Source: Candidatus Marinacidobacterales bacterium (GTDB lineage Bacteria > Acidobacteriota > Vicinamibacteria > Marinacidobacterales > SMYC01). From it: a DNA stretch of 64,000 nt. Position numbers and translations under genes: made by a program. Shown here one piece after another: positions 20,959 to 23,511 of the stretch. The notes under the pieces were generated by a model. That model did no database searches. It had not been told where the DNA came from and saw only the letters and a list, made by a program, of their open reading frames with translations. The stretch is taken from the NCBI GenBank assembly GCA_965237955.1, contig OZ250169.1, positions 352,001-416,000 on the forward strand, read 5' to 3'. Every line of letters begins with the position of its first letter. The first letter of the stretch is position 1.

Positions 20959-21221
20959 CGTCCTGTGCCAAAACTCGGCCCTTTCGAAATAGGCCATAAA
21001 TCAGCAACTTAGTGTCTGTGTTTGCGACCGGGCCAAGGGCCGTGGGCTTTACAATCGTCTTGGGCGGGCGGGTCGTCACCATGCAGATGACCTCCTAGTC
21101 GAGAGCGAATATCGAAGCGTGTGCCTGAAGCTGTTTTTCACGCTACGCCGAGCGGGCCCACCAAGGGGCTACCGTCGCCGGCGACCATTTACGCGGCACG
21201 GCAGTAGTAGTTGAGAACGCC
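20959..21221 (-). mobile_element. Right end (CGTCCTGTGCCAAAACTC) and last codons (GVLNYYCRAA*) of another rve element
   Basis: Longest of 14 copies of this end; abuts the intron 3' end. Confidence 0.7.
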
Positions 21222-23227
21222 TTCGCGGTAGGGACCGCCCTTACGGGCGGCCCCCCGCACAGATCCCAGCGAGCGCTGCTAACGCACTGGGCTCCTACCT
21301 CAGGTCATGACGCGCAGTCGCTGTTCGGGGTACGGGTGCAAAATACGAATAGGTGGAAACCAGCGGTCGGCCAAACGGTTCATGCGCTCCCCGGTCATCC
21401 GGTGTCGTTGGCTCCTCTGCCGTAGCGTACGGAGCCACAGACGGTACACCTGATACTTGAAAGCGCCGAGTTTCCGTTGGTTACGAGGCACCGCATAATA
21501 GTTGAAATGCCCCTGCATGACCGACCTTAGCCATTGCCCCACCTCAGGGACAGGATGGTGCAGCCGTCGCTTCAGCTCGATTTTGATCTCGCGAAGTTTC
21601 GACTGCAGCCGTTTCCGCATCGTCTGCCGAAGCACTATGCATTTCCCATTCCTTGTCTTGTCACACGTATGTGTGAAGCCAAGAAAGTCGAAAGACTCGG
21701 GTTTCCCCTCGCCGCGCCGTTTGCGGTTCTCGGCAGCATAGCGGCCGAATTCCATCAGGCGCGTCTTTTCGGGGTGCAGTTCAAGATGGAATCTCTGGAA
21801 TCGCTCCCTGAGTTCCTCCAGGAATCGCTCGGCGTCCTCGCGGTACTGGAATCCTACCGTGAAGTCATCGGCAAAGCGCACGATGATCACTTCACCGCGA
21901 GCATGCCTCTTCCTCCACTGGTGGACCCATAGATCGAACACGTAGTGCAGATACACGTCCGCTAGCAAAGGGGATACACTTCCCCCTTGAGGCGTTCCCT
22001 TCTCCGCCTGTGTTCGCTTCCCATCCTCCATCACACCAGCGTTCAGCCACTTCTTGATGTGTCGCAGCACACGCTGGTCTGCTATCCGATGCTCGACGAA
22101 CTTCATCAGCCATTCGTGGTCGATGGCATCGAAGAACCCGCGAATGTCCGCGTCGAGCATCCAGTTCACCCTCTTGCGCATGATTCCGACGTAGAGGGCA
22201 TCCAGCGCATTGTGCGGATTGCGCCTCGGTCGGAAGCCATAGGAGAAGCCGAGGAAGTCGCTCTCATAGATCGCGTTCAACACCTTGACCACCGCGCGCT
22301 GGACTACCTTGTCCTCTAGTGCGGTTACTCCGAGCGGCCGCTGCCGCCCATCGGCCTTGGGAATGTACACTCTCCGGACCGGCTTCGCCCGGTACGCCCC
22401 ACGCTTCAGCCTCGTGCATAGTTCCTGCAGGTTGCCCTCCAGGTCCTCGCCGTAGTGCTGCCACGTCTCCCCGTCTACTCCCGGTGCAGCATTCCGCTTG
22501 AGGCTAAAGTAGGCCTCCCGGAGGCGGTCGACGTTGTAGACATGATGCCAGAGCGCTGTGAACCGTGCTCCTTTATCCCGGCAGGCAACCTGCCGTATCC
22601 GCTCCAGCGCGCTTTGCAGGTCAGGGGGACCGAACGTAGGCGCACTCCCTTGGCTGTTTCCGCGGTTTCTCGCTTCGTGCCCGTTTAGGGTTGTCCATAT
22701 TCACTCCCTGCCCGGCGCTGTGTCCGGGACCTGATTTGCCGTAACGGATTTCCTTTGGTCAGCCCCCTTGGCTCCACCTCCTCCGCGAGCTGAGGCGCAC
22801 CCCAGCCTTTGTTCAAAGGCTTCTCAGCTACTATGGGGCTGTCAGACTTCCCGCATCCGTACGTCGCTGTCGTGCTCCTTGCGGATTCACAGCGCGGACC
22901 CCGATGCCACTCAGGACCAGATGCGGGACCTCCCGGCTCCCGTGTATGTCTCTTGGCGTGCGTGCGCAGGGTCTCGGACCACGCGGGGGCGGAACAGCTC
23001 TTGCGATAACGATCTGCTCCGTGTTGCCTTCCGTGCCATACGACGCCGTCGGCCCCCCGAAGTTTATTTTACTTTCGCGGCTCAATATCCAGCCCGCACG
23101 TCTCCCTGTCAACGCTTCGCCTTTGCTCTCGCGAACAACAACGCATGACTCGGGGCCAATCTGGTTCGCTACTCCTTCATTAGGCGGGACTTGCACCCGC
23201 GAGATTTACCGGTTTGTGCCGGCGCAC
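21222..23227 (-). mobile_element. Group II intron (~2.0 kb, no endonuclease domain)
   Basis: 5' GTGCGCCGG at 23227; DV/DVI GAGCCCAGTGCG...CGCTGGGATCTGTGCGGGGGG...CCCTACCGCGAA ending at ~21222. Confidence 0.93.
21300..22619 (-). CDS. ltrA: Group II intron reverse transcriptase/maturase
   Basis: APGVDG, IPKADGRQRPLG, SYGFRP, DADIRGFFD, GTPQG, RFADD, FDFLGF. The frame is open to CTG 22619 (LQSALERIR); the start is uncertain. Confidence 0.92.
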   Translation of the reverse strand: MQSALERIRQVACRDKGARFTALWHHVYNVDRLREAYFSLKRNAAPGVDGETWQHYGEDLEGNLQELCTRLKRGAYRAKPVRRVYIPKADGRQRPLGVTALEDKVVQRAVVKVLNAIYESDFLGFSYGFRPRRNPHNALDALYVGIMRKRVNWMLDADIRGFFDAIDHEWLMKFVEHRIADQRVLRHIKKWLNAGVMEDGKRTQAEKGTPQGGSVSPLLADVYLHYVFDLWVHQWRKRHARGEVIIVRFADDFTVGFQYREDAERFLEELRERFQRFHLELHPEKTRLMEFGRYAAENRKRRGEGKPESFDFLGFTHTCDKTRNGKCIVLRQTMRKRLQSKLREIKIELKRRLHHPVPEVGQWLRSVMQGHFNYYAVPRNQRKLGAFKYQVYRLWLRTLRQRSQRHRMTGERMNRLADRWFPPIRILHPYPEQRLRVMT

Positions 23228-23511
23228 CGTCTGGTCAAAATACTCGGACGCCCAGCGGGTCAACAGTTTGCACCTTTCCACAGACCGCTTGAATCCGCCA
23301 TCGCGGTCGGATACGTATTCCAGTTCAGCGGAAGGGGTCGTGAGGGGCTGGAATACCATGGTGAGCTACATCTCAGGGTCCGTGGATGAGGAGTTGCTCC
23401 TGCGCAACGAGTAGTTACCTCAGTCCGAGCGCAAGGTGCGCTCCGGTGAACGGCTTGGCGGGCTGCTACGTTTCTACCATCGGGAAGCCGCATGAGTATT
23501 TTGACCTCACG
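23228..23511 (+). mobile_element. 284-bp internally deleted derivative of the element at 40800-41950
   Basis: CGTCTGGTCAAAATACTC...GAGTATTTTGACCTCACG ends, with the first and last transposase codons fused. Confidence 0.85.

Follow-up and report, generated by a model that had tools for sequence, protein, structure and literature searches.

Class C (IIC) group II introns sit behind terminators and in attC sites, and tandem copies of them are known. Closer in habit to the case described here is RmInt2 of Sinorhizobium meliloti GR4, all copies of which are reported to lie in the left and right inverted repeats of the insertion sequence (IS) ISRm17 (Martinez-Rodriguez et al. 2014, PMC4615759), and its authors point out that the inverted repeats double the number of targets. 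The same report describes relaxed pairing of the second exon-binding site (EBS2) and head-to-tail double insertions ascribed to a pair between EBS3(U) and the first G of a resident intron, and it summarises RmInt1 as an intron of high specificity. For EcKTE56.groEL, an intron of subgroup IIB1 from E. coli (Mob DNA 2025, PMC12584367), tandem integration at the occupied home site by an EBS3(U) wobble with the resident G is likewise described, with constructs that lack an open reading frame (ORF) stacking more often. Here we analyse a group II intron in a 64,000-nucleotide stretch of the genome of a Candidatus Marinacidobacterales bacterium (contig OZ250169.1, positions 352,001 to 416,000; hereafter the window), which starts directly after the end of an IS481-like element. 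Our reading, to which we give a probability of about 0.85, is that it arrived by retrohoming guided by EBS1 and EBS2 into the terminal 15 nt of the IS.

The likeness to RmInt2, as that intron is described in its report, lies in an endonuclease-less intron placed on IS ends, with relaxed pairing and head-to-tail copies. RmInt2, however, is of ORF class D, whereas the reverse transcriptase (RT) of the window intron lacks the class D motif and carries FADD, not YADD; RmInt2 lies within the inverted repeat and is reported to need the 3′ exon up to +7, whereas the window intron follows the last conserved IS base and has unrelated 3′ flanks; natural arrays of up to 12 units in a related metagenome-assembled genome (MAG; G001) compare with the two RmInt2 copies reported from a laboratory assay; and ISRm17, the host of RmInt2, belongs to a different family from the IS481-like host. 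EcKTE56.groEL targets the groEL stop codon and not a mobile element, and its report describes tandems in assays and in ~3% of reads rather than long fixed arrays. RmInt1 in ISRm2011-2 shares with the window intron a location on a multicopy IS and an RT without an endonuclease domain, but sits inside the transposase gene and not at the tip. With class C introns the common feature is target recognition almost wholly on the 5′ side; those introns read a hairpin and a short intron-binding site 1 (IBS1) and have no EBS2, whereas the window intron has an EBS1 of 6-7 nt, a candidate EBS2 and a match to the Rfam family group-II-D1D4-6. Because homing into IS inverted repeats and head-to-tail re-entry are both published for RmInt2 (PMC4615759), the novelty is lower than an earlier note, made from the sequence of the window alone, had assumed.

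The only match at gathering level to Rfam in the window was RF02005 (group-II-D1D4-6) at 22969-23193 on the minus strand, with 179.1 bits against a gathering score of 49, spanning the full model (1-225). On that strand the junction 23228/23227 reads ...GAGTATTTTGACCAGACG|GTGCGCCGG..., the intron opening at 23227 with GUGCG, which fits the 5′ GUGYG expectation. Using blastn, we compared the intron with the window's own 8.13-Mb genome and obtained 21 segments: the full-length window copy (copy A), a second full-length copy missing intron positions 1-26 (copy B), three internally deleted derivatives that keep the 5′ end (copies C, D and E) and, for the rest, a series of 3′ fragments. All four 5′ junctions of these copies start with GTGCG, and the 13 3′ junctions end in CCGCGAA (12 of 13) or CGCGAT (one) before 11 different flanks. 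The exact bounds are proven by copy E, because its two exons, GAGAATGTTTTTCACCGTGCG and ATAGCTGTAAGAGC, are identical to an uninterrupted site, contiguous at 37322|37321, in an IS21-family element of the same window. This site resembles the tips discussed below, and its sequence recurs, as far as the junction base, at 45 further places in the genome; it is elsewhere in the genome that it holds the ORF-less copy E. The features concerned are as follows.

21222..23227, minus strand: group II intron of 2006 nt, from 5′ GUGCG to 3′ CUACCGCGAA, delimited by copies with different flanks, the empty site and RF02005.
21222..21295, minus strand: domains V and VI, folding at -47.3 kcal/mol (z = -3.7) and conserved in 31 relatives.
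37302..37342, minus strand: empty look-alike target in an IS21-family element (GAGAATGTTTTTCACCGTGCG|ATAGCTG), with the junction at 37322/37321.

The earlier note had placed the intron at 21220..23245; it is a real group II intron, and that range takes in 18 nt of the 5′ exon and 2 nt of the 3′ exon. In the predicted fold of the 3′ part, domain V forms a hairpin with the usual 2-nt bulge, and domain VI carries a bulged UA with the branch-point A at 21229, 7 nt from the 3′ end. Two peculiarities of this part may be recorded beside the fold. Within domain V (21261-21295), the AGC triad has its G opposite an A instead of a U, both in the window copy and in its relatives (alignment A3). At the 3′ end (21222-21224), the window lineage reads ...CGCGAA, whereas 30 of 30 aligned relatives end in C or U, mostly as ...CGAC or ...CGAU; judged by this alignment, the terminal intron base is changed to A in the window's lineage.

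The element on which the intron sits is a miniature IS; it and two other stretches of its family are listed here.

23228..23511, strand not assigned: miniature IS481-like derivative of 284 bp, ORF-less, with both ends; it has an inverted repeat, and its halves match both ends of longer copies.
31953..32011, strand not assigned: solitary, unoccupied end of the left inverted repeat (IRL) type, a 59-nt remnant with the junction ...GACCAGACG|GG.
40800..41950, strand not assigned: a longer member of this IS family, bearing ORF fragments with HTH_32 and rve_3 and truncated by an IS6-family element.

The inverted repeat is 18 nt long and 89% complementary (23228-23245 against 23494-23511), and the 5′ exon of the intron, ...GAGTATTTTGACCAGACG, is one of its arms. 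Searched against the genome, the miniature element gave 106 blastn segments, in which its two halves match the two ends of scattered longer copies. Where the earlier note described the 5′ exon as the terminal inverted repeat of an rve mini-element, the repeat holds; the mini-element has no ORF, and the rve link comes from other copies. In the longer copy of the window the relevant ORFs are 41338-42027 (HTH_32) and 40816-41325 (rve_3, 27.3 bits against a cut-off of 26.5). The best NCBIfam model was IS481, with 49.9 bits against a cut-off of 224, over the N-terminal part only and on ORF fragments; since this is far under the cut-off, we use the name IS481-like and do not regard membership as settled.

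A regular-expression scan of the window's genome found 86 ends, 49 of the form CGTGA-GGTCAAAATACTC-ATGCGG and 37 of the form CGTCT-GGTCAAAATACTC-GAACGCC, and homology among the IS copies begins at CGT in these. We assign the CGTCT end to IRL, because the transposase gene starts ~110 nt inside it, and the other to the right inverted repeat (IRR). Pattern searches gave 54 + 37 ends (91) in the window's genome, 50 + 35 in G001 and 40 + 34 in a second related MAG (G002); within the window, the 13-nt end core occurs five times, against 0.78 expected. The same junction without an intron that the earlier note had seen at 32011 is present and is followed by GG. A second repeated IS family, with 11, 9 and 11 copies in the three genomes, starts its homology exactly at CGTATGG in 10 of 10 aligned copies, and both families share the terminus ...TTTG(A/C)ACC-NNN-CG.

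Some further observations concern these ends. At 16654-16671 the window has a candidate end, CTTATGGTGCAAAAACTC, that is similar to the tip found in the second IS family, CGTATGGTGCAAATAGTAC; read as the reverse complement, this candidate pairs 6/7 with EBS1, in agreement with the earlier note. An identical 20-nt sequence, CCGTTTCCTGTGGGAGTGCC, stands before the CGTAA variant of the IS end at 7 places (window 16590-16625; genome 332026, 709701, 2960824, 4673203, 7867516, 7882363 and 7996542), and CCGTTTCCTGTGGGAGTGCC also occurs near the end of a window element carrying a 551-aa ORF of no known family; the combination is either a composite present in several copies or a target that the IS strongly prefers. 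The 574-aa ORF beside the end at 32011 was considered as a transposase and rejected, being a SIR2_2 protein.

The four partners of the proposed exon recognition lie on the minus strand of the window, two in the IS end and two in domain I of the intron.

23228..23234, minus strand: IBS1 CCAGACG, exon positions -7 to -1 and the last 7 nt of the IS end; pairs 6/7 with EBS1, with class-wide covariation.
23036..23042, minus strand: EBS1 loop CGUAUGG, the terminal hairpin loop just before GGAAGGC in the Rfam alignment.
23236..23242, minus strand: candidate IBS2 UAUUUUG, exon positions -15 to -9; pairs 7/7 (one G-U) with UAAAAUA.
23065..23071, minus strand: candidate EBS2 UAAAAUA, on the unpaired 5′ side of a domain I internal loop in the Rfam structure line.

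The earlier note had proposed these two loops from complementarity and a fold of domain I as the check on them, and both lie where the Rfam model puts them: the EBS1 loop, 6/7 with CCAGACG, is a terminal loop and also covaries with the exon, and the candidate EBS2, 7/7 with one G-U, falls in an internal loop that the model leaves unpaired. For the covariation we fetched 80 loci encoding relatives of the RT, located intron 5′ ends with nhmmer and built an alignment of 41 that includes 18 nt of exon from each. Between exon positions -1 to -7 and the seven EBS1 loop columns, 75.7% of the cells are paired, against 43.3% after shuffling, a value that none of 500 shuffles reached, and 47-53% when the partner is slid by 1 to 3 columns; the covariation score is 0.773 against 0.218 in shuffles, and changes on both sides occur in 7 of 7 pairs. 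The loop is one base shorter in 7 sequences, which puts them out of register and lowers the paired figure. Because position -7 is paired in just 17 of 41 sequences, EBS1 is mostly a 6-nt element. We regard the position of EBS1 as settled by this covariation across 41 aligned relatives.

For EBS2, three relatives (L105, L108 and L102) show by eye a 5-nt stretch (GAAAC or AGAAC) in the analogous place that is complementary to the exon just upstream of IBS1, and the U-tract stays in one register across the eight target variants that the window's lineage uses. Relatives differ in the distance from IBS1 to IBS2, and the EBS2 loop aligns with gaps.

Where this intron goes can be read from its close copies. 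Five loci in two related MAGs (G001 and G002) have 99% RT identity, all other relatives standing at 71% or less, and the tally of junctions covers the window's genome and these two MAGs, in which a pattern search for the first 22 nt of the intron found 32 copies (G001) and 1 copy (G002). Over the three genomes, 15 of 16 independent 5′ junctions are at IS tips: 3 of 4 in the window's genome (A after an IRL tip, C and D after IRR tips, and E in the IS21 look-alike), 11 of 11 in G001 (5 heads of runs and 6 singles, with the exons read) and 1 of 1 in G002 (a single copy after CCAGACG). None of the 16 was found at a sequence unrelated to the tips. The 5′ exons in G001 end as follows.

CCTCACG: 8 junctions, one with an upstream variant.
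CCTTACG: 1 junction.
GAGTTTTTTGACCACGCG: 1 junction.
CCAGACG: 1 junction.
GTACTATTTGCACCATACG: 1 junction, at a tip of the second IS family.

The junction at the second-family tip is a perfect 7/7 IBS1 (CCATACG). At the other side of the intron, the 11 distinct 3′ flanks in the window's genome have a purine at +1 throughout, 8 of them G and 3 of them A.

Whether these junctions represent separate events bears on how much the tally can say. If a single ancestral insertion at a tip had been followed by the spread of an IS-plus-intron block through recombination or duplication, the counts would overstate independent homing; the genomes are indeed full of IS copies and rearrangements, and several G001 junctions share the same 40 nt of upstream IS sequence. 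However, the 3′ flanks differ between copies, the upstream IS remnants are cut at different points, the junctions use both ends of the IS and five or more tip variants (IRL-type, IRR-type, CGTAA, CGCGT and second-family tips), and two intron subtypes stand at the same kind of tip, so that block-copying seems very improbable to us as the general explanation. The order of events could also be reversed, with the IS arriving second through a transposase that prefers to insert beside the 5′ end of resident introns. In the flanks of IS ends, positions -1 and -2 are biased to C, and an intron start read in reverse complement likewise gives C at -1; no target-site duplication was seen by which the events could be ordered. 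Against this stand the clean insertion of copy E in a tip-like internal site of an IS21 element with 45 other copies in the genome, the complementarity of the exon ends to EBS1 and EBS2, the use of both ends of one IS family together with the tip of a second, arrays that begin at the tip with no IS between their units, and the small share of ends in the window's genome, just 3 of 86, that have an intron beside them. We hold this order to be extremely improbable, and arrival of the intron by retrohoming likely.

The 32 copies in G001 fall into runs of 12, 6, 4, 2 and 2 and 6 singles, with a spacing between 5′ ends of 882 nt, or of 2005 nt for full-length units. In two loci (L037 and L038), the 3′ end of one unit is followed without a gap by the 5′ end of the next, so that ...CCCTACCGCGAA runs straight into GTGCG. 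The longest run is given here.

G001:C1:7593593-7604437 (L119-L130, L038): array of 12 introns with a period of 882 nt and one unit of 2005 nt.

This array has the IS tip at its start and ...CCGCGAA|AGCAACC at its end, and it contains units of two intron subtypes (99% and 91% identical) in interleaved order. Tandem Repeats Finder found nothing on L038, where its longest period of 500 compares with the array period of 882. The arrays fit re-entry into occupied sites.

The protein that would support such movement is damaged in the window copy.

21300..22704, minus strand: RT/maturase ORF with a +1 frameshift, caused by a fifth C at 22624-22628 in a run of four in copies B, D and E.

The reading frame stops at 22623-22621, after 27 codons, although RVT_1 is still matched. 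Copy B has an intact ORF of 467 aa, which matches TIGR04416 with 376 bits against a cut-off of 300 and in which only RT and maturase families were matched, with no DNA-binding or endonuclease domain. Its RT domain 5 motif is VRFADDF, as in the window copy (FADD, not YADD), and its C-terminus, ...RLADRWFPPIRILHPYPEQRLRVMT, is without the class D motif LX3AX3PXLF[V/A]HW, because of which the intron is not of class D. FADD is given as a mark of variety g2, a group of intron ORFs without endonuclease, by Toro and Martinez-Abarca (2013, PMC3552965); membership of g2 suggested by this motif is a lead and not a placement. In copy B, intron positions 1-26 are replaced by an element with a 329-aa transposase-like ORF, which we take as putatively IS5-like (L036:2153-3142, genome 3587152-3588141), inserted at intron position 26/27; the 5′ exon is lost too, and the missing first 26 nt were found nowhere else in the window's genome. 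No fully autonomous intron copy was seen in that genome, and because the RT of the window copy is frameshifted and the other full-length copy is cut by the IS5-like element, movement there would need RT in trans. A separate observation on the 3′ fragments is a unit of ~1.5 kb present twice (genome 2925539-2927060 and 7903219-7904778), bounded by inverted 3′ intron fragments of 119 and 79 nt and with identical outer flanks; it resembles either an element that took parts of the intron with it or a rearrangement that was then duplicated.

On the simplest reading of the mechanism, the 15 nt on the IS side would supply IBS2 and IBS1, the flank contributing only a purine at +1, a rule that we draw from the flanks only, and each transposition of the IS would then create a fresh intron site. 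Since the resident intron begins with G, an occupied tip would stay a target, and a further copy would be inserted directly behind the tip, ahead of the resident intron, producing arrays that always start at the tip, as observed. An RT without an endonuclease domain might draw its priming from replication, by analogy with RmInt1 and RmInt2.

Several observations weigh against retrohoming into the tips as we describe it. On the side of pairing, EBS1 is identical in 11 of 11 close copies whatever the tip, while the targets differ at -3 to -5; the commonest tip, CCUCACG (10 junctions), pairs only 5/7 with EBS1, both mismatches being central; IRL tips match better but are occupied less often (3 of 106, compared with 11 of 144 IRR-type ends); and the tip with a perfect IBS1 is occupied once in 31 copies over three genomes. 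The pairing of EBS2 amounts to 4 to 7 A-U or G-U pairs depending on copy and target, as judged by eye, and for EBS3 the +1 base of 30 relatives, compared by eye with variable columns near EBS1 (228-231, 149 and 210 of alignment A2), covaried with none of them, so that EBS3 was not located. On the side of the IS, no direct repeat that could be a target-site duplication appeared in four end pairs read by eye, and the flank next to unoccupied tips is biased: of 66 ends whose flanks are distinct, 43 have C at -1 and 51 have C at -2. The IS may therefore really end as much as 2 nt farther outward, in which case the intron would sit just inside its end. Given this bias and the lack of a target-site duplication in those pairs, 'exactly at the junction' means the point where homology between IS copies ends. 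As to the remaining evidence, Rfam RF00029 (domains V/VI) gave no match on the 3′ part of the intron at E up to 1, the three shorter runs are called arrays from spacing alone, and all arrays come from one long MAG assembly (G001).

Since the most-used tip pairs 5/7, IRL is used less and the perfect tip is occupied once in 31, specificity looks relaxed, and tip occupancy probably follows other factors. The same figures could be read to mean that the IS tips are off-target landings of an intron whose true home is another, perfect CCAUACG site that is rare in or absent from these genomes: most tips pair 5/7 or 6/7 with EBS1, EBS1 never adapts to them, and occupancy is low, at 3 of 91 ends in the window's genome. 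The sole occupied perfect match is, however, itself an IS tip, 15 of 16 junctions are at tips with none found at unrelated sequence, and RmInt2 likewise homes with relaxed pairing, which makes such a displaced home improbable.

The position at the tip might moreover be an adaptation and not incidental. An intron there would pair solely with terminal bases that the transposase must keep and ask only a purine of the flank; it would thus gain fresh sites, both ends, related IS families and limitless re-entry, leading to arrays of mostly ORF-less satellites that depend on few RT-coding copies. Parked at the cleavage site of the transposase, it might also alter the activity of the IS. We regard this adaptive interpretation as possible but rather doubtful.

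The earlier note went further, suggesting that this intron lineage specialises in transposon ends, and took as its check whether the 5′ exons of RT homologues are IS inverted repeats with covarying EBS loops. For copies at 99% RT identity the specialisation stands, their 5′ exons being IS tips in 15 of 16 independent junctions. It does not extend to relatives at 71% or less, which lie at unrelated targets with matching EBS1 loops, and the specialisation is therefore narrow. EBS1 covaries with its target class-wide but is invariant within the lineage, and homologues at unrelated targets, by which the note would have judged its proposal wrong, occur among the distant relatives alone. Other targets with matching EBS1 loops are what is expected of group II introns.

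A pattern of its own appears among relatives at 62-71% identity from Acidobacteriota MAGs, many of whose 5′ exons read ...TCAT-N7-9-(T)CTCCT|, with EBS1 loops AGGAG(A/C) (L097, L105, L113, L101, L102, L108, L111, L058, L045 and L047). Read in reverse complement, these exons resemble a start codon with its Shine-Dalgarno sequence, and this subgroup may therefore home antisense to translation starts.

The locus opens no new principle, as the principle is already in print. Its value lies in a well-documented example from nature of a mobile element that makes its home on the ends of a second one, in three related genomes, on two IS families and at both IS ends, with empty and occupied sites both in hand. 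It extends the precedent of RmInt2 and ISRm17 to a different intron variety and a different IS family, indicates that the tandem re-integration known from the laboratory can yield long arrays in nature, and offers a simple system for asking how little 3′-exon information an endonuclease-less intron needs.

The IS-rich stretch around the intron also holds a C-5 cytosine methylase, a full MmeI-family restriction-modification gene (949 aa) and a SIR2_2-domain protein (886-1800, 24842-27691 and 30188-31912), and with these genes it may be a defence island.

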